Assembly: GCF_017348835.2 (NCBI RefSeq)
Contig: NZ_CP072317.1
Direction: 5' to 3' (one strand)
Length of the DNA stretch: 64,000 nucleotides
Origin: Escherichia coli
GTDB taxonomy: Bacteria > Pseudomonadota > Gammaproteobacteria > Enterobacterales > Enterobacteriaceae
Notes under the pieces: model-generated
The model's database searches: none
The model's input: the letters and a program-made list of their open reading frames with translations, nothing else
Told to the model about the DNA's origin: nothing
Position numbers and translations under genes: made by a program
Part shown: positions 8,797 through 42,749 of the stretch, piece by piece
Position numbering within the stretch: position 1 is the stretch's first letter
How the letters are laid out: each line of letters starts with the position of its first letter

Positions 8797-11619
8797 TTAT
8801 TGCTTATACTTATCCTGATATTCCTTTGCCCTTTTCATCAGTTCCTGTGGACTGTCAGCCCCGGGCATTCTTTCCTGAGCCGACTTTTCTTCATTATATT
8901 TATTATTCTGAGATAATGCCTCTGTTTTATGGTGATTCTGCAGTTCAGAATACTGTCCTCTTACAATATTTTCCTCGCCACGTACGCTGTTCTGAGTATC
9001 ACCTATATTCCCTTTATATTCTGTGACCATATTATCAACCTGATGTTTTACATCATTACGGATATTACTGTCCTGCGTTCTTTGATCAATAATGGCCTGA
9101 TGCCCCTGATGGTCAGCAATAATATCCTGACTGCCACCACCCGAAGGTACGCTCTCCATTCCTTTACCAATATCACCACGGGATTCCCGCCAGGCATTAT
9201 CAACACCAGGCTGTACCTGTTCCTGCACAAAAGACCAGGCCATCGCCCGACGACGTTCTGCAATCTCCGGTGAACTGGTGTTTGTCAGAATAGCTTCTGC
9301 ATCCTGTGGCGCGTGTTTCATTACATACTGTGCAAACTGTTGCGACAGGTCTTCACTCATCTGCCCACTCATGCTTTCAGTACGGGATGCCATTTCAGCA
9401 TATTCATGGCTGCGGGTCATATTCGTCGTGTACTGGTCGTAACTCTGCTTCGCTGAATTCAGGGCTGCAGACAACTGATCCACACGGGAATCAGCATTAT
9501 TGTCCGTATGGCTGCCGGACTCACTGACCTTGCGACTGGTAAAATAATCGCTGGCCTCTTTAAAGTCTTGTGTAGCTCTGGCATCGATATCATGACGAGC
9601 ATTATGGCTCGACTGAGTATTACTACTTGCCGTATGCGCATCATTATCTTCCCAATCAATACCAGCCCGACCACCACCTCTAACGCCTAATCCTCCACCA
9701 ACACCAAGAATTTTAGGTTTAACCCCCCATTCAGCATGAGCATCTCCATACATCCCGGCAGAAGCTCTCGTACTTCTGGATGCCAGTTCCTGAGTCGCCT
9801 GCTCATTACTGATATTATGCGCCTTCGCATAGCTTTCCACTGCACTGCGCATACGGCTGGCCATCATGGAGTCCTGTGCGCTCATCGTGCTGTCAGCACC
9901 ACCTGTGACAGAATCACTGCTCCCCCGGTTAGAACCAAACTGGCTGAGCGAGTTCCAGGCACTGGCAATACTGCTGCTGAACCCATGCAGGGCGCTTTCT
10001 GCTCTGTTCGACGCCTCCCGGGCCATTTCCTGTTGTGCCGCTGCAATCTGACGCGTTGCATTGATACCGACCGGTAACCGGGACATCGCCCCGCTCGCAT
10101 CCATCACCATATTACCGTCACGGGTCTGTGTGGCAGTTGCGCCACTGCCGGTCTGGTACATCATCTGACCAAACGACGTGGTGCTGTTGGTGCTCCAGCT
10201 GAAGCCGTTCACGTTTTCCGTCTGCATGTTGCCGTAGGAGTAATTACCGTCAACCACACTACCTGCCGCACTGGCAGTCGGGCTGATAGCAGAGGAAGCG
10301 AAATGGCTGTACACGCTGGAAAAACCTGCGCCAAGGCCTTTTACCATCATCCATGACAACGGGGGTATCATGACAGATATATATCCGGCAGTGGACGCCA
10401 GGTCGGAGTATTTCAGCTGTATCTGAGAGAGTTCAGAGAGCACGACCGGTGCACCATTCTGCTTTGCATAGAATGTCATGGCACTGTTCAGAATGGCATA
10501 CAGCAACGGCCAGGTCTGGAACCACATCAGAGCAAACACATAGCCTCTCAGAACAGACAGCGTCAGTCTGTTGAAGACAGCCGCCAGTACCAGGAGCGGG
10601 AAGATACCAATGGTAATGCCCACCAGAATGGTCTGCACCATCGGCAGGTTTCGCATCAGCACATGACCAATGGAGACATGTGCCAGACGCTGTTTCTCCA
10701 TCGACGAAGTCGTGGCCAGACTGACCAGGCTGGCGGTATCACCGTTACGGGCTGCATTACTGGTGATACCCTCTTTCAGGGCATTCATGGTGACGTTCTG
10801 GCGCATAATATGACTGGCAGACTGGCTGGAGCCGTAGAAATAACTGTAACTGTCACTCACCAGTTGCCTGAATAACAGGTCCGGGTCCGGTCTGCCGCCA
10901 AATATCTGCTGCACATAATAATGCCAGGTCTTGCCTCCCGTCTTTGTATCGAGATTCAGCCTGTCTTTCAGCGTGACCGACGCATCTTTACAGGTTATGA
11001 AATTATTATTGCTGTCATAAACGCCCCGTAGCGGGCTGGGCCGGGAAAAAATCAGCGTGTAGGGGTCAGCGGAGGCCATCAGGTCTTCCAGCGTGTATTT
11101 GTGGTTCAGGTAAATATCCCCCAGCACGCAGTTCTGGACGTAGTCCTGAAACAGATTGATGATTTCCGGATTCCGGGACAGAAAATCGGTGCTTTTCACA
11201 ATCAGGTTCGCCCCGAACAGCATGCCTGTCTTGCTGTAGGTGGCGCTGTCAGGCTGGGTGAATATCATCTCGTAACTGGCCACCATTGCATGCCCGATAC
11301 GGGTCGTCAGTGAAAGTGGCATCGCCAGTCCGACAGGCACATTATCCACCCGGTGAACCTGGACCAGGTCACTGTTATCAATAATCTGCACCGATGTACG
11401 GACATTAACCAGCAGGCTGATAAGCACAAACACGGCCACCCAGCCCAGCAAATCCATCACGTTGTGCCGCTGTACCCACATCACGGCCACCGCGAGAACA
11501 GACAATGTGAGCGCAATTTTTTCGATGGAATCCCACGTCCGGGTCCCCATAAAGGCGGCAATGGCGTTCAGGTTATTGCGTAACCACTCACCACCGGCAA
11601 TCACATAGACTTCATTCAC
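8797..11619 (-). CDS. traG: TraG mating pair stabilisation protein
   Basis: 940-aa ORF, N-terminal polytopic membrane domain, F-type TraG size and synteny. Confidence 0.93.
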   Translation of the reverse strand: MNEVYVIAGGEWLRNNLNAIAAFMGTRTWDSIEKIALTLSVLAVAVMWVQRHNVMDLLGWVAVFVLISLLVNVRTSVQIIDNSDLVQVHRVDNVPVGLAMPLSLTTRIGHAMVASYEMIFTQPDSATYSKTGMLFGANLIVKSTDFLSRNPEIINLFQDYVQNCVLGDIYLNHKYTLEDLMASADPYTLIFSRPSPLRGVYDSNNNFITCKDASVTLKDRLNLDTKTGGKTWHYYVQQIFGGRPDPDLLFRQLVSDSYSYFYGSSQSASHIMRQNVTMNALKEGITSNAARNGDTASLVSLATTSSMEKQRLAHVSIGHVLMRNLPMVQTILVGITIGIFPLLVLAAVFNRLTLSVLRGYVFALMWFQTWPLLYAILNSAMTFYAKQNGAPVVLSELSQIQLKYSDLASTAGYISVMIPPLSWMMVKGLGAGFSSVYSHFASSAISPTASAAGSVVDGNYSYGNMQTENVNGFSWSTNSTTSFGQMMYQTGSGATATQTRDGNMVMDASGAMSRLPVGINATRQIAAAQQEMAREASNRAESALHGFSSSIASAWNSLSQFGSNRGSSDSVTGGADSTMSAQDSMMASRMRSAVESYAKAHNISNEQATQELASRSTRASAGMYGDAHAEWGVKPKILGVGGGLGVRGGGRAGIDWEDNDAHTASSNTQSSHNARHDIDARATQDFKEASDYFTSRKVSESGSHTDNNADSRVDQLSAALNSAKQSYDQYTTNMTRSHEYAEMASRTESMSGQMSEDLSQQFAQYVMKHAPQDAEAILTNTSSPEIAERRRAMAWSFVQEQVQPGVDNAWRESRGDIGKGMESVPSGGGSQDIIADHQGHQAIIDQRTQDSNIRNDVKHQVDNMVTEYKGNIGDTQNSVRGEENIVRGQYSELQNHHKTEALSQNNKYNEEKSAQERMPGADSPQELMKRAKEYQDKYKQ

Positions 11620-30233: not shown

Positions 30234-30905
30234 CTATTCAGCACATTTTAAAATAAAAAACAATTCATCAAAGAATAAACTATGCATCCTGCTTGTATGA
30301 AAAATCATTAACAAATCATGTTTTGAATGTATACCGAAAAACTTATACACTTCTGAAATTGCATTCCGGGAAGAACCATTAGTAATAGACAAAAGAGATG
30401 CTATCGATTCATGACAAAAACCAAATGAATAAAGAATAAAAACTTTCCATTGGATTTCCGTTGATTTGTTTTTAAATTCAAGCATTCTGTCATTTGTTAT
30501 ATTTGTACGTAATCCTCTACAATAATCCACTATCACATTAGAATTTTTGCAGAAAAAAAGCCATAAAACATTAACCACCTCCCCATATATTAATGGTATA
30601 AATTGTACCAGCCAGAGTTTATCACCTATAGCCACGCTCTGTATTTTATTCATGGACGAAGGCAAAGACATAGCATCCAGTTCTTCTCTTAAGAACGATG
30701 TAGCTACTTGTACAGGAAGGGAGTAAAACCACTCTTTGATATCAAGACTACCTATAAATTCTTTAGAGAATTTTTCATTGTAGCCGATAAAATCTCCATT
30801 AGTATTTCGAACACAAGCAGGGATTGAAAAAACATCGACAAAAAACTGTTTATCCAAATATATTTGACGTTCAGTATTAAGTTGTCTAGGATCCGTCGGA
30901 TACAT
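30234..30905 (-). CDS. traJ: TraJ transfer activator (R100-type)
   Basis: 223-aa AT-rich ORF; ATG at 30905-30903 with AGGAGG RBS. Confidence 0.85.
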
Positions 30906-30979
30906 AGGAACCTCCTCTCAAAGGATTCTATGGACAGTCGATGCGGGGAGGTCGCTCTCCCTGCATCGGCGATTTTTAA
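30902..30979 (+). ncRNA. finP: FinP antisense RNA (approximate ends)
   Basis: Antisense to traJ RBS and start; two stem-loops, second (30944-30972) followed by GATTTTT on + strand. Confidence 0.6.
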
Positions 30980-31098
30980 TATCTGTTTTAACGTGGCATT
31001 AACCACATAATTAATATAACCTTTATGTGGTTAATTGTCATCAAATTGAACCAGATCAAAATCCTGTTATTTGAAGTAAATCAACTTTTAATTCTTTT

Positions 31099-33635: not shown

Positions 33636-33932
33636 TCAAATCAGGTCAGTTCGGGACTGACCAACCTGCCGAGTGAAAAGCAGTAACAGCGCGATCAACT
33701 CATCAGCGTTTTTTCTGACAAGAGGAGTATGATTCTCCAGGCTATCCAGTAAGTCATGCAGCTCATTATTGACCTGGTGGAGCACCTTAAAGAGTGCACC
33801 AGAATCCCGGCAGCTCTGATATGCAAGATTTGCCTGAACAGCACGATTCTGCATGATCCCGATTTGTGCGATTGCGTCTTTCTGCTGATCGCCTGTTGGC
33901 TGATAAGTGGTGTTAAAAGAAAATGCGCTCAT
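33636..33932 (-). CDS. hypothetical protein, first ORF 3' of Frpo-like repeat copy 1
   Basis: 98-aa ORF; start codon 9 bp from the repeat boundary. Confidence 0.45.
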   Translation of the reverse strand: MSAFSFNTTYQPTGDQQKDAIAQIGIMQNRAVQANLAYQSCRDSGALFKVLHQVNNELHDLLDSLENHTPLVRKNADELIALLLLFTRQVGQSRTDLI

Positions 33933-33940
33933 AATTCCTC

Positions 33941-34620
33941 CTGTATCTGATGTTTTCAGCCCCCATCATCTGTTGAGTTTCGGGAGCCGCGGTTTTGACG
34001 TTTTGCGGGGACCTGCCTTTTGTTCCCTCCGGTATTCACCATCACCTGTTTGAGAACCTTCGCCGCAAGGGGCATCACTGCCACGGCCTGACGCACCTGT
34101 CCTGGGCAGAACGCAAAATTTTTTACCGGGTTTTGGGTAAAAAATTTTGTGGGCTGTTCATTTACCCTGGACAGTCAGTGCGGCAGGTTGTGGCTGTCTA
34201 TGCCCCCGGCGACAGGGGCTTAAACAGGTGAATGGCACCGGACAGAACAACGGGCAGGGACCCGCCGCAACGACGTGAAGCGCGGTTTGCGAAACGGCGT
34301 TGCTCCTTACATCCCGGCGTCTTTTGCCGGGATGCCGGGAGCGCAGGCCACGGCGCGACAAGGGTGGCGCGACCGTTCCGGTCGCTGCAAACCCGGGTTT
34401 TTGCGTCAGGGATGGAAGCCCGCCAGGGCGGAGACAGCTTCGCTGGCTCCGTTCACGACAGCCCGCCCCGCCAGGGGGACGCCCGGAAAAGGCATAAGCA
34501 GGAGAACAACAAAACAGACAATAATCAGGGCAGCAGTAATCAGAGTCAGAGCAGTAATCAGAGTCAGAGCAGGAGGAAAAAGAGAATAATCAAAGGGAAG
34601 GTGATGTGATTTCTGGTAAG
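33941..34620 (+). promoter_or_regulatory. Frpo/ssi-like repeat unit, copy 1 (candidate single-stranded-DNA promoter)
   Basis: Near-identical to 39431-40110 and related to 42750-43400; contains a ~230-nt imperfect hairpin on the + (transferred) strand. Confidence 0.6.
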
Positions 34621-34846
34621 TCATAAACAGAGAAGGCGGGGGAAAAGAACGGGCGCCGCAGGCGCACGTTCATCCCCGTTCCCGGAGGGAAACGGCCTTC
34701 CTGGCAGTCTGGTTGTTCATGCCCGTACAATGCCAGCAAGGAGAAAGGGGCCACCGGCGAACCAGCAGCCCCTTTATAAAGGCGCTTCAGTGCAGTCAGA
34801 CCAGCATCAGCCCTGAAAAGGCGGGCCTGCGCCCGCCTCCAGGTTG

Positions 34847-35005
34847 CTACTTACCGGATTCGTAAGCCATGAAAGCCGCCACCTCCCTGTGTCCGTCTCT
34901 GTAACGAATCTCGCACAGCGATTTTCGTGTCAGATAAGTGAATATCAACAGTGTGAGACACACGATCAACACACACCAGACAAGGGAACTTCGTGGTAGT
35001 TTCAT
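34847..35005 (-). CDS. hok: Hok-family toxin (hok/flmA)
   Basis: Manual translation gives [52 protein letters not shown] (52 aa); below ORF-track size cutoff; GC hairpin 34821-34840 in 3' region. Confidence 0.85.
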
Positions 35006-35063
35006 GGCCTTCTTCTCCTTGCGCAAAGCGCGGTAAGAGGCTATCCTGATGTGGACTAGACAT
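34851..35063 (-). CDS. mok: Mok (modulation of killing) overlapping reading frame
   Basis: 70-aa ORF overlapping hok in another frame, as in hok/sok loci; sok antisense RNA expected on + strand about 35030-35110 but not delimited. Confidence 0.55.
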
Positions 35064-35284
35064 AGGGATGCCTCGTGGTGGTTAATGAAAATTAACTTAC
35101 TACGGGGCTATCTTCTTTCTGCCACACAACACGGTAACAAACCACCTTCACGTCATGAGGCAGAAAGCCTCAAGCGCCGGGCACATCATAGCCCATATAC
35201 CTGCACGCTGACCACACTCACTTTTCCTGAAAATAACCCGCTCATTCAGGCTGTTTACGGGTAATCTGTGTGATTGTTGCCGCA

Positions 35285-36004
35285 TCACGCCGCCTCCCGG
35301 AGTTTGTTCGGCACCATCCACCGCTCCATCTCACGGACAGCGTGACCGGCCTCTCTTGCTGCAAGACTGGCTTCCGCAATAACCTGCCAGAACGGCATAT
35401 CCTGCCACTGCCAGCGTTCCATTCCGGCCAGTGACGGAAAACGCTCACCCCACTGCCAGAACAGGGTTTCCAGGTCATGCTCTGCCACCCGGTCACTCCA
35501 GCGTGCATGCCAGCTTCCGACTGTTTCCGGCGAATGGAATGCCAGTTCGATTTCAGCCTGAGCGACCAGCGCCTGGTACGCACGGGCTTTCTGCTCTGCC
35601 TCCCTCGCCTGCTGGCGGCTGTACTTTTGCATGACCAGTGCGGATTTGTGGCGACTGCGCTCCCTGACACGGAACCGCACCGACGGGAACAGCCGCTCTG
35701 CTGCATCGCCGGGAAGGGGAAGAAGGCAGACCTCGCCCTGAGTTTCAATCAGCACATCGACGGCATACAGCCACTGAGAACGGTTGCCGCGCAGTTCTTC
35801 TGCGGTCAGGGACGGCATGAAAAATCGCAGGTCAGACAGCGATATCCTGCGGCTTCCGTTCAGACAGCGGAAAAACGCCCCCGCATACGGATATTCCGCC
35901 AGCGTGTTTCCCTGGTGGCGGCGTTTTTCTGTCTCCGCCACCGCCCGCCATGCGGCCTGTTGCTCTGCGCTGAGGGGAACCAGTGCCTGTGAACGTGCGC
36001 TCAT
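35285..36004 (-). CDS. psiA: PsiA plasmid SOS inhibition protein A
   Basis: 239-aa ORF, stop/start coupled to psiB. Confidence 0.9.
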
Positions 36005-36503: not shown

Positions 36504-38527
36504 TCAGGCGGCTTCTGCCTGGTCGTCACGGTACTCCGTGGTTTCCGTCTCTGCCTGTGGACGTGGTGTACACATCCAGCCAGGCACCCAGCGGTTGTCT
36601 TTCATGTGGAACTCTGCATGTTCAGCGGCATCGCCTTTCTTCATTTTCTCCGCGTCCCGCGCAGCACCGGACAGTCCGGCATCATTCAGGGCATCGATAA
36701 TCTGCGGCTTTTGCAGGTGTCCGAAGAAGTTTGCTTTCGTCGGCTGCCACCAGTCGCGCATGTGGAATCCGATAGCGCTCTCCAGCGAGTCCAGCGGACT
36801 GCGTGACGTGTGACCATGCTCGCGGGTCTGAACGCCGTGGATGCTGCACGCGGTGCAGAAACTGAGCAGGGATAACAGTACCTCCTGGCTGAGTGACAGG
36901 AATGTCGTCATATCCCGTGACCATCCCTCCGGTAACAGGGCTGCAAGACGGGCTTTTTCTGCCATCAGCGCCAGGAATGCGGCACCGTCCTTCCCCGATG
37001 GCGCATCGCTGGTCAGCGAATAATGTTTACATTCCAGGCTGATTTGTGCTGGTTTACTGTACGCTCCGCTGCCAAACACATTCAGGCAGAGCGCTGATGA
37101 ATCCCCTAATGATTTTGGTAAAAATCATTAGGGGATTCATCAGGGCAGAGCGTCCATGCCAGCAGTGCCAGAGATTTGTCCGGTTGCTGCATCAGTGCTG
37201 CCTGGACTGCCAGCGTGCGTTCGGAAGACATTTTCGTCAGCAGTGGCAGACTGATTTCCTCCACGGGCGCTTTCTCCTGCACCTGTTCCGTGCGGTCAGC
37301 GTCGTCAGCCGCATCATCCTCGCTGCGCAACTGCACACCACGCTGGACACACACGTTGCCATAACGCCAGGACACCACCACACCGCTTCCGGCACGCATC
37401 TCCGGCGTCCACGCCCTGACCTTCGCCATGCAGCGCATCAGCTTCATTTCTGCTTCCAGCAGGTCAGATTCCTCACACTGGTTTTCCAGCGCGTCGTAAC
37501 GCGTCATCAGTTCGTTCAGACGTTCTTCTTCCGCCTCCGTCAGCACCGCTTCCGGCTCCGGCAGACAGCGGTATGTTCCGGCATCCTCACGGCACTCACC
37601 GACAGGCTCCATGCGTCCGGCGCACCATCCCCAGCCTTCGGCTTCCCGAAGGTGTTCAGCAACAGCCTGGAGTTTTTCCAGCAGGGCGGCATCGAGCGCC
37701 ACGCAGTCCACATAGCCACCCTCGTCGTCGCTGAACAGGTCAGTGCGCAGTTCATCTGGCGAGAAGGCATCAGCCCCCACGAAGCGGAATTTACTGTTCC
37801 CTGCCACCGCCACTTCACTTTCGGTCACCAGACGACGAATGGTCTGTACTTCCGGTTTACCGCCCCATCCCGACTGACAGGCGGCTTCAAACACCTGCAC
37901 CTGACGCGCGGTGTCGTTCTCCAGCGCCAGCGCCTGACAGTGCTCGGTGGTGATGAGGTCTTCTGCCAGCGCATCGAGGATGACAGGCGCAAGGTCAGCC
38001 AGTTTCAGCATTCGCTGAACGTGGCGGGGTGAATAGCCCAGCAAATCACCGATTTGTGCAGGTGTTTTGCCTTCCTGCGCCATTGCACAGAATCCGGCAA
38101 TCTGTTCGGCTGGGTGCATATCCCGACGATGACCGTTCTCGGTCATCGATGCGGCCGTCGCCAGTTCCTGCGAAATAATTTTCACGCGGACAGGCCAGTC
38201 AGCCGGAATGATGCCACGCTCTGCCAGCATGTTGAGTGCTGCCAGTCGGCGACCACCTGCGGCGACACCGTGGCGGTCACCTGGCAGGGCATGAACAACC
38301 AGATTCTGCAGCAGGCCGACCCCCTTAATGGAATCAGCCAGTTCGCTGACGGACTCCGCAGAATACGGCACCGTGCGCACATTCAGTGGTGACTTAATCA
38401 GCGAGGCCAGCGGCACGCTCACTTCCTCCGTCTGCGCCAGCAGGGCAGACAGGACAGTTTCCTGCGTTTTTGCAGGTTTACGGCTTGCTTTACGGGTAGA
38501 TTTTGGTTCAGACTTTGTTACTGACAT
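36504..38527 (-). pseudogene. ParB-like leading-region gene disrupted by a 59-bp insertion
   Basis: ORFs 37106..38527 and 36504..37079 are in different frames; removing the 50-bp element plus one 9-bp duplicate restores one frame; upstream ORF ends in DESPNDFYQNH encoded by the insert. Confidence 0.7.
37094..37143. mobile_element. 50-bp palindromic mini-element made of IS10 terminal inverted-repeat sequence, flanked by 9-bp direct repeats
   Basis: CTGATGAATCCCCTAATGATTTTGGTAAAAATCATTAGGGGATTCATCAG; flanking GGCAGAGCG at 37085-37093 and 37144-37152. Confidence 0.65.
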
Positions 38528-39406: not shown

Positions 39407-39430
39407 GATGTGTCTCCTTCTGTTGATGTT

Positions 39431-40110
39431 TTCAGCCCCCATCATCTGTTGAGTTTCGGGAGCCGCGGTTTTGACGTTTTGCGGGGACCTGCCTTTTGTT
39501 CCCTCCGGTATTCACCATCACCTGTTTGAGAACCTTCGCCGCAAGGGGCATCACTGCCACGGCCTGACGCACCTGTCCTGGGCAGAACGCAAAATTTTTT
39601 ACCGGGTTTTGGGTAAAAAATTTTGTGGGCTGTTCATTTACCCTGGACAGTCAGTGCGGCAGGTTGTGGCTGTCTATGCCCCCGGCGACAGGGGCTTAAA
39701 CAGGTGAATGGCACCGGACAGAACAACGGGCAGGGACCCGCCGCAACGACGTGAAGCGCGGTTTGCGAAACGGCGTTGCTCCTTACATCCCGGCGTCTTT
39801 TGCCGGGATGCCGGGAGCGCAGGCCACGGCGCGACAAGGGTGGCGCGACCGTTCCGGTCGCTGCAAACCCGGGTTTTTGCGTCAGGGATGGAAGCCCGCC
39901 AGGGCGGAGACAGCTTCGCTGGCTCCGTTCACGACAGCCCGCCCCGCCAGGGGGACGCCCGGAAAAGGCATAAGCAGGAGAACAACAAAACAGACAATAA
40001 TCAGGGCAGTAGAAAAAAGAAGAACAGTAGCAGTAGCAGTAGCAGTAGCAGTAGCAGTAGCAGTAGCAGTAGCAGTAGCAGGAACAACAACATCATCAGT
40101 AACAGACAAA
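39431..40110 (+). promoter_or_regulatory. Frpo/ssi-like repeat unit, copy 2, immediately 5' of ssb
   Basis: Near-identical to copy 1; ssb start about 25 bp away. Confidence 0.65.
40026..40081. repeat. hexanucleotide microsatellite (CAGTAG, about 9 copies)
   Basis: Perfect tandem repeat at the distal end of repeat copy 2; copy 1 carries an 18-bp-type imperfect repeat at the same place. Confidence 0.9.
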
Positions 40111-42283: not shown

Positions 42284-42514
42284 TCAGTTAAAAGCGCGTT
42301 TCAGTTCGAGTGTGCGGAGCACCTGCCCGAAAGCCGTATTTTTCATGGCGGGGATGTGTACACCACGTCCCCGGTGAAAACTCCGGGCAATGTGTCGCCC
42401 GAAGGCTTTCAGCACGGGGTCAATTTCCGGCGCGGGGATGTCTTCGCGTCTGAAACGGGGATGACGGCGGGGCTTTACAGCCGCTGCGGAAGGTGAAACA
42501 ATACTTACCGTCAT
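42284..42514 (-). CDS. hypothetical basic small protein, first ORF 3' of Frpo-like copy 3
   Basis: 76-aa ORF. Confidence 0.4.
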   Translation of the reverse strand: MTVSIVSPSAAAVKPRRHPRFRREDIPAPEIDPVLKAFGRHIARSFHRGRGVHIPAMKNTAFGQVLRTLELKRAFN

Positions 42515-42749
42515 AAATGAAACTCCTTATGACTGTTGAATGGAACCGCAGAAACTGCTCGAACAGTTTTTGCGGTGTGGATTAAGCAGGTCCTCCCCGG
42601 CCTGCTTTTTTCATATCTGCGTCTGACGTTCTCCGGTGTTTTCCTCCTTCTGTTCCTGCGTTCTCATTACCTGCCAGCCGGATGACTGACAGAACAAATA
42701 AATGCGTATTGCCGGAGCCTGAAATAAATCCTGATTTTTAAAGAACATC

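Follow-up and report, generated by a model that had tools for sequence, protein, structure and literature searches.

Sequence evidence for an intact R1-type hok/mok/sok locus in the leading region of an IncFII plasmid

A 64,000-nucleotide stretch of Escherichia coli DNA (hereafter the window) carries at positions 34847–35063 what is very probably (probability roughly 0.96) an intact hok/mok/sok type I toxin–antitoxin locus, which represents the R1 parB allele (named flm in F) and is carried in the leading region of a conjugative plasmid of the IncFII, R100/R1-like type. The Rfam family RF01794 matches this locus over the full length of the model (1–157) with a score of 88.9 bits in a scan of the whole window, where the gathering score is 59. 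This score, together with 100% identity to R100 across 521 bp, far exceeds what would be expected of a chance match. The copy described here is of a known, common and ordinary type, and it is undamaged. Given its sequence identity to the R1 system, its function is expected to be post-segregational killing.

Hok and Mok reading frames

The hok toxin gene occupies positions 34847–35005 on the minus strand, beginning with an ATG at 35005 that is preceded by a Shine–Dalgarno (SD) sequence, GGAG, at 35018–35015, and closing with a stop codon that ends at 34847. By exact-sequence look-up, its 52-amino-acid (aa) product is identical to Hok of plasmid R1 (UniProt HOK_ECOLX; UniRef name 'Protein Hok'). 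The protein matches Pfam HOK_GEF (PF01848) with E = 1.2e-21 (76.5 bits, cutoff 22) and matches the NCBIfam Hok family toxin model NF007279 from end to end with 126.4 bits (cutoff 73); its match to the HokA model is weak, at 44.6 bits, and falls under the cutoff of 89. A tblastn search with Hok recovered the same locus, with 100% identity across 52 of 52 residues, as the sole Hok-like locus within the window, and neither this search nor the whole-window Rfam scan revealed a second hok-family locus of the srnB or pnd type there. The sequence-only reading had proposed that the hok frame was missed by the open reading frame (ORF) track, which is plausible because the frame is below a 60-aa cutoff, both at 52 aa and at the 59 aa obtained when the ORF lister extends it to a TTG at 35026.

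The mok reading frame (34851–35063, minus strand) overlaps hok in another frame and encodes 70 aa from an ATG at 35063. Its product matches Pfam DUF5431 (E = 2.6e-41) and the NCBIfam model NF010277, 'modulator of post-segregation killing protein' (151.6 bits, cutoff 110), and is identical in an exact-sequence look-up to FLMC2_ECOLX (UniRef name 'Protein FlmC homolog'). The interval 34847–35063, which had been proposed as the span of the locus, is the exact union of the hok and mok frames and holds for these two, whereas the whole functional locus is wider, extending from the terminator at about 34736 to the −35 element of the hok promoter at 35214.

It might be argued that the 52-aa frame is open by chance and that nothing but an antisense RNA or a structured untranslated region (UTR) is really present, since the ORF is short, overlaps other frames and is called in RefSeq with a different start that yields 41 aa. 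However, a chance frame would not be expected to give the Pfam and full-length NCBIfam matches described above. Furthermore, start-codon, stop-codon and 57 missense suppressor mutations of R1 map to the hok frame (PMC9841398), and the Hok protein is conserved among homologues although the synonymous DNA differs. We therefore consider a chance frame scarcely credible and retain the assignment of this ORF as the Hok toxin.

The different start is a recurring feature of the RefSeq records of R100, R1, F and pCTXM3_020032, in which Hok is annotated as a 41-aa protein that initiates at an internal GTG at 34972 (34847–34972, minus strand) and thus begins 11 codons after the ATG at 35005, the start for which there is experimental support. 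Both mok and Sok are missing from these records.

Promoter, RNA ends and regulatory elements of hok mRNA

A promoter scan identified a hok promoter at 35185–35214 (minus strand), composed of a −35 element TGGTCA (35214–35209), an 18-nt spacer and a −10 element TATGAT (35190–35185), that is identical to its R1 counterpart. The TATGAT box lies at −12 to −7, and its mutation abolishes hok transcription in R1 (PMC9841398). The hok (mok–hok) mRNA accordingly spans 34736–35178 on the minus strand, with the G at 35178 as position +1. This choice places every regulatory position mapped in R1 (PMC9841398) on the same mRNA coordinate, including G4, C5 and T6 of tac (the translational activator element), A70, G71 and C72 of ucb (the anti-SD box), G105 and A106 of the mok SD, the mok ATG (116–118), the hok ATG (174–176) and the hok stop codon (330–332).

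Three isoforms of hok mRNA, with lengths of 441, 398 and 361 nt, have been described for R1, along with a 3′ end of the Tr form that reads ...CCCGCCUU (PMC1635323). On the window coordinates, the primary transcript extends to about 34736, the full-length mRNA of 398 nt ends with ...GAAGCGCC at about 34779–34781, and the processed, translatable mRNA of 361 nt ends at 34818, where the Tr 3′ end is set by the hok R primer (PMC1635323). A terminator-like hairpin at 34738–34775 (minus strand) has the form AAAGGGGCUGCUGG-UUCG-CCGGUGGCCCCUUU followed by CUCCUU, with a predicted energy of −27.6 kcal/mol (z = −2.3). Its position equals that of the R1 441-nt isoform plus a 2-nt insertion, and this putative terminator probably marks the end of the primary transcript.

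The elements that govern translation of R1 hok mRNA are all found at corresponding positions. Nucleotides +1 to +10 constitute tac (GGCGCUUGAG; 35169–35178, minus strand), and nucleotides +389 to +398 constitute the fold-back inhibitory element fbi (CUGAAGCGCC; 34781–34790, minus strand). The ucb element, GCCCCGU, is located at +71 to +77 (35102–35108, minus strand), and its alternative partner is tac, through the pairs G4–C72, C5–G71 and U6–A70 (Rfam model; PMC9841398). The mok SD region (35070–35076, minus strand) includes GAGG at 35074–35071, which corresponds to mRNA positions +105 to +108; the SD positions reported for R1 are G105 and A106 (PMC9841398). Further downstream, the downstream complementary box dcb, GCCUC, occupies +138 to +142 (35037–35041, minus strand) and is complementary to GAGGC of the mok SD. 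This pairing is present in the Rfam consensus and in the constrained open fold described below, and in each of the 11 homologues it is either unchanged or still able to form. Finally, folding of the 361-nt RNA yields a GC-rich 3′ hairpin at 34818–34839 (minus strand) that forms the protective 3′ end of the processed mRNA; mutations within its stem destabilize the Tr mRNA (PMC9841398).

Sok antisense RNA

The sequence-only reading had predicted that sok would be found on the plus strand around 35030–35110, and the gene is indeed located there. Its promoter (35019–35047, plus strand) carries a −35 element TTGCGC (35019–35024), a 17-nt spacer and a −10 element TATCCT (35042–35047), and the RNA of 64 nt spans 35054–35117; both are identical to R1. 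The promoter matches only seven of 12 consensus positions, which accounts for its absence from the output of a generic promoter scan, and we assigned it by its identity to the R1 sequence together with the distance that separates it from the mapped 5′ end of Sok. The ends of Sok were set by the R1 sok primers (PMC1635323), with the 5′ end written as GACTAGACATAGGG... or GACUAGACAU... and the 3′ end as ...GGGGCTATCTTCTT or ...AUCUUCUU.

Sok is complementary to hok mRNA from +62 to +125. This stretch spans ucb, the mok SD and the mok AUG, which begins at +116, and the hok start codon lies outside it. A target that includes the mok start and excludes the hok start fits the known indirect control of hok via mok. 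The predicted Sok fold (−26.5 kcal/mol, z = −6.74) consists of a 12-nt 5′ region that is single-stranded in the centroid structure, a long hairpin and a U-rich tail.

The Rfam family RF01794 is named 'sok antitoxin', but its match is to the hok-sense strand, running from 35179 to 35003 (minus strand), which is from one base before +1 to the hok AUG. Thus, RF01794 in effect models the open hok leader, and strand calls derived from it would mis-orient Sok (35054–35117, plus strand).

A 59-aa ORF on the plus strand at 35085–35264 appears in several records as 'hypothetical' or 'protein sok'. This ORF lies opposite the promoter and leader of hok, in antisense orientation, and matches no family; we regard it as an annotation artefact.

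Comparison with R1, F and other hok loci

We aligned the window with R1 parB (NZ_KY749247) and F flm, and thereby carried out the hok/flmA family alignment that had been named as a check on the original assignment. The hok ORF of the window is identical to that of R1 and differs from F flm by four nucleotides. Both hok and mok are intact, with no frameshift relative to R1 and with nucleotide identity across both frames. In R1 (parB; GenBank X05813; NZ_KY749247 at about 57360–57890), the Hok and Mok proteins, the hok and sok promoters, Sok RNA, tac, ucb, SD, dcb and fbi are all identical to those of the window, and hok resides directly downstream of psiA in the leading region, as it does here.

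Within the mRNA, the window and R1 differ at only three sites, comprising two substitutions and a 2-nt GC insertion. An A at +44 of the window in place of the R1 G converts a U–G wobble into a U–A pair in a small hairpin, where UA is present in nine and UG in two of 11 sequences. A G in place of A at about +363 falls within the 3′ tail that is lost on processing. The GC insertion in the 3′ UTR is shared with F flm and, in the predicted fold, is accommodated by an internal loop of 4 nt. According to these predicted structures, the three differences should be structurally neutral, and they alter no defined element. A few more substitutions relative to R1 are found upstream of the hok promoter.

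The flmA/flmB/flmC locus of F (NC_002483, about 62.7–63.2 kb) has the same architecture as the window hok and lies between psiA and Frpo1. In the FlmB/Sok target region, F differs from the window by several substitutions as well as 3-nt and 2-nt deletions around the mok start. The differences of F flm are therefore mainly in the antisense target, indicating that the window carries the R1 type of Sok specificity, not the F type.

Several plasmids carry exactly the same sequence at the hok locus. R100 (NC_002134), which has Tn10 inserted upstream of psiB, is 100% identical over 521 bp, as are IncFII F2:A-:B- resistance plasmids such as pC15-1a (NC_005327) and pCTXM3_020032, the latter of which is 100% identical to the window across 21 kb of the surrounding leading region. 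Many E. coli and Klebsiella plasmids of clinical origin also match the same 521-bp query at 100%; in total, at least 5,000 plasmid records match, 1,192 of them with at least 99% identity.

These comparisons bear on the possibility that the locus is a decayed remnant, in which the toxin ORF persists in a system that is dead through loss of sok, of a promoter or of the switch elements. Other plasmids do contain truncated hok copies from which the promoter and roughly the first 90 nt of the leader are missing (hits H81–H85), and the poor consensus match of the sok promoter could be taken as a sign of decay. However, the two promoters, the two ORFs, the gene for Sok and all switch elements match those of functional R1 exactly, the three differences from R1 preserve pairing or fall in unpaired or removed regions, and the 521 bp are kept at 100% in R100 and many clinical plasmids. 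Decay is thus a very improbable explanation, and the preferred reading is that of an intact R1-type locus.

More distant members of the Hok/Gef toxin fold family include srnB of F, pndA of R483/R16 and chromosomal hokA–E, which follow the same logic of antisense RNA and mRNA refolding. Their sequences are much more divergent from the window hok. The 5′-truncated copies H81–H85 cover positions 172–521 only of the query and are usually the second copy in a plasmid record, showing that decayed hok loci exist elsewhere.

Predicted folds and covariation

The 398-nt hok RNA (35178 to 34781) has a minimum free energy (MFE) of −175.3 kcal/mol, compared with −129.4 ± 5.7 kcal/mol for shuffled sequences (z = −8.07). 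In both the MFE and the centroid structures, tac (1–10) pairs with fbi (389–398) and ucb (71–77) pairs with the mok SD region (103–109), which is thereby sequestered. This fold reproduces the published closed, untranslatable form. When the first 30 nt of hok RNA are folded alone, as in a nascent transcript, they form a local hairpin involving tac that corresponds to the reported metastable structure.

We imposed the published open form as a set of constraints (G1–C75, G2–C74, G4–C72, C5–G71, U6–A70 and GAGGC at 105–109 with GCCUC at 138–142). For the 398-nt RNA, forcing this form carries a penalty of 13.5 kcal/mol, which falls to 1.9 kcal/mol for the 361-nt RNA. Thus, 3′ trimming is predicted to lift nearly all of the barrier to the open form, a result that is consistent with the switch but is not proof of it. 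Unconstrained MFE folds of 359-, 361- and 363-nt RNAs retain the ucb/SD pairing and do not flip from closed to open, such that the switch appears in the thermodynamic model as a near-degeneracy (1.9 kcal/mol) with no clear flip.

Covariation was assessed with an alignment of 11 homologues at 80–100% identity, which comprises the window, R1, F, pO157 and seven plasmids at 80–85% identity from E. coli, E. albertii, Enterobacter and Klebsiella. Across these sequences, 90.3% of the cells of the full-length structure are paired, a value inflated by the derivation of the tested structure from the window's own sequence, compared with 35–44% when the partners are slid by one to three columns. Compensatory changes affecting both sides are present at 16 pairs, a number matched by none of 500 shuffles. 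All nine tac/fbi pairs are kept in 11 of 11 homologues, and because both elements are invariant their covariation is not scorable. Indeed, tac, fbi, ucb, SD and dcb show no variation in the set, so the covariation support comes from other helices and not from the switch boxes, which on this alignment speak neither for nor against the structure. When the open leader derived from Rfam is projected on the 11 homologues, its covariation does not exceed that of the shuffle or slide controls, since at this level of divergence the key boxes do not vary.

Proposed mechanism

In the R1 hok/sok system, the mRNA is known to be trimmed exonucleolytically at its 3′ end, the duplex to be cleaved by RNase III, the RNAs to differ in stability and the system to act by post-segregational killing (PMC1635323, PMC9841398). 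The killing mechanism is thus established for R1, and near-identity suggests that it also applies to the window locus, whose anatomy and predicted folds are direct results and whose transcription, processing, RNA half-lives and killing should follow those of R1. If so, a weak promoter would produce a stable and tightly folded hok mRNA, in which the end pairing of tac and fbi, along with the masking of the mok ribosome-binding site by ucb, would keep the RNA untranslated and unbound by Sok. Slow 3′ trimming to the 361-nt form would remove fbi, and this loss would permit the 5′ region to refold into the tac/ucb and SD/dcb pairings, exposing the region around the mok start together with the loop targeted by Sok.

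In a plasmid-bearing cell, the abundant but short-lived 64-nt Sok RNA would pair with the exposed region and block mok translation. Translation of hok would be coupled to that of mok, and the Sok/hok duplex would then be cut by RNase III. In a plasmid-free cell, Sok would decay first, and the stored hok mRNA would then mature and be translated to yield the 52-aa membrane toxin that kills the cell. Together with pemIK and parMR, hok/sok would keep the plasmid in the population.

The presence of an intact R1-type hok/sok locus on a resistance plasmid may help to account for persistence of the plasmid without antibiotic selection, and makes the plasmid a possible target of anti-Sok strategies (PMC1635323). 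The assignment adds little new knowledge, but it completes the annotation of plasmid maintenance functions (hok/sok, pemIK and parMR) and illustrates two recurring annotation problems, which are a short Hok without mok or Sok and an Rfam 'sok' model that lies on the hok-sense strand.

Plasmid context and Frpo-like repeats

The locus is bordered on one side by psiA (35285–36004; Pfam PsiA) and on the opposite side by Frpo-like element copy 1 (33948–34572), in agreement with the neighbourhood originally proposed. The claim that the plasmid carries at least three maintenance systems was likewise borne out, with parM at 47749–48711, parR at 48714–49064, pemI at 59966–60220 and pemK at 59632–59961 present in addition to hok/sok.

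Copy 1 of the Frpo-like element is part of a pair of direct repeats (33948–34533 and 39424–40009) that are spaced 5,476 bp apart and are perfect over 586 bp, with 97.9% identity over roughly 630 bp. The pair brackets a 5.5-kb segment that includes hok, psiA, psiB, a parB-like gene and ssb, and a third copy with 89% identity is located at 42746–43183. The repeats of the window are 90–94% identical to the regions of F upstream of ygeA and ssb, which are the Frpo1 and Frpo2 positions (PMC9849209). In R1 the two corresponding repeats share 99.5% identity, whereas in F they share only about 90%, which suggests homogenization in the IncFII lineage. When the plus strand, which is the transferred strand, is folded as single-stranded DNA with DNA parameters, it adopts a single long hairpin with imperfect pairing that spans about 320 nt (33977–34298) and is centred near 34130. 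This predicted structure fits a candidate Frpo-type single-strand promoter upstream of a 98-aa ORF at 33636–33932 (minus strand).

This setting raises the question of whether the main selected role of the intact module is local, either to guard the leading-region segment between the Frpo-like repeats from deletion by recombination or to act in early establishment after conjugation, or both. The position of hok within the 5.5-kb ssb...psiB–psiA–hok segment between perfect 586-bp repeats favours such a role, as does the resemblance of these repeats to the F Frpo1 and Frpo2 regions. In F, which has the same arrangement of the hok region, flmAB has been proposed to safeguard the intervening segment (Couturier et al., PMC9849209). 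Moreover, hok is read from the transferred (T) strand like other leading-region genes, with the plus strand of the window as template. However, a local role is compatible with classical post-segregational killing, which has been demonstrated for the nearly identical R1 locus cloned out of context (PMC1635323, PMC9841398), and deletion of Frpo2, or of Frpo2-driven ssb and psiB, left F transfer unaffected (PMC9849209). We regard a chiefly local role as unlikely, though far from negligible, and favour plasmid maintenance by post-segregational killing as the reading of this locus.

A more speculative and rather improbable extension is that the Frpo-like single-stranded DNA promoter upstream of ssb drives read-through transcription of hok on the incoming single strand, so that hok-sense RNA appears before Sok is made and loads the new host with toxin mRNA ahead of the antidote. 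Since hok is read from the transferred strand, its template is the plus strand, which enters the recipient first, and the lack of a strong terminator between psiA and hok would make read-through from the Frpo-like promoter possible. Sok would be unavailable early, as the strand that templates it has to be made first by complementary-strand synthesis. If true, early loading of hok would penalize recipients that abort plasmid establishment and would guard the region bounded by the perfect 586-bp repeats against deletion. A paper on the early-conjugation transcriptome makes no mention of flm/hok expression (PMC12672017).

Additional sequence features were observed around the repeats. A duplicated CTCTGACTCTGATTACTG motif is present at the outer edge of Frpo-like copy 1 (about 34540–34590), where it lies inside a 72-aa ORF (34406–34624, minus strand) that is called 'hypothetical' in some records and has no family match, and a short tandem repeat, (GCAGTA)n, is found at the outer edge of copy 2 (40006–40107). 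Just downstream of the hok terminator region, positions 34686–34724 form one arm of a 39-nt inverted repeat with 74% complementarity that is possibly due to chance. The other arm (38287–38325) is about 3.6 kb away, between psiB and a DUF905 gene, where R1 and F have a parB-like gene.

Other matches above the Rfam gathering score in the window comprise the FinP and traJ 5′ UTR antisense pair, the replication-control RNA CopA and three families antisense to traI, traG and pHK01_035. These matches, at 30899–31008, 62847–62937, 1348–1424, 10815–10900 and 42509–42610, fit an F-like transfer region and an IncFII replicon.
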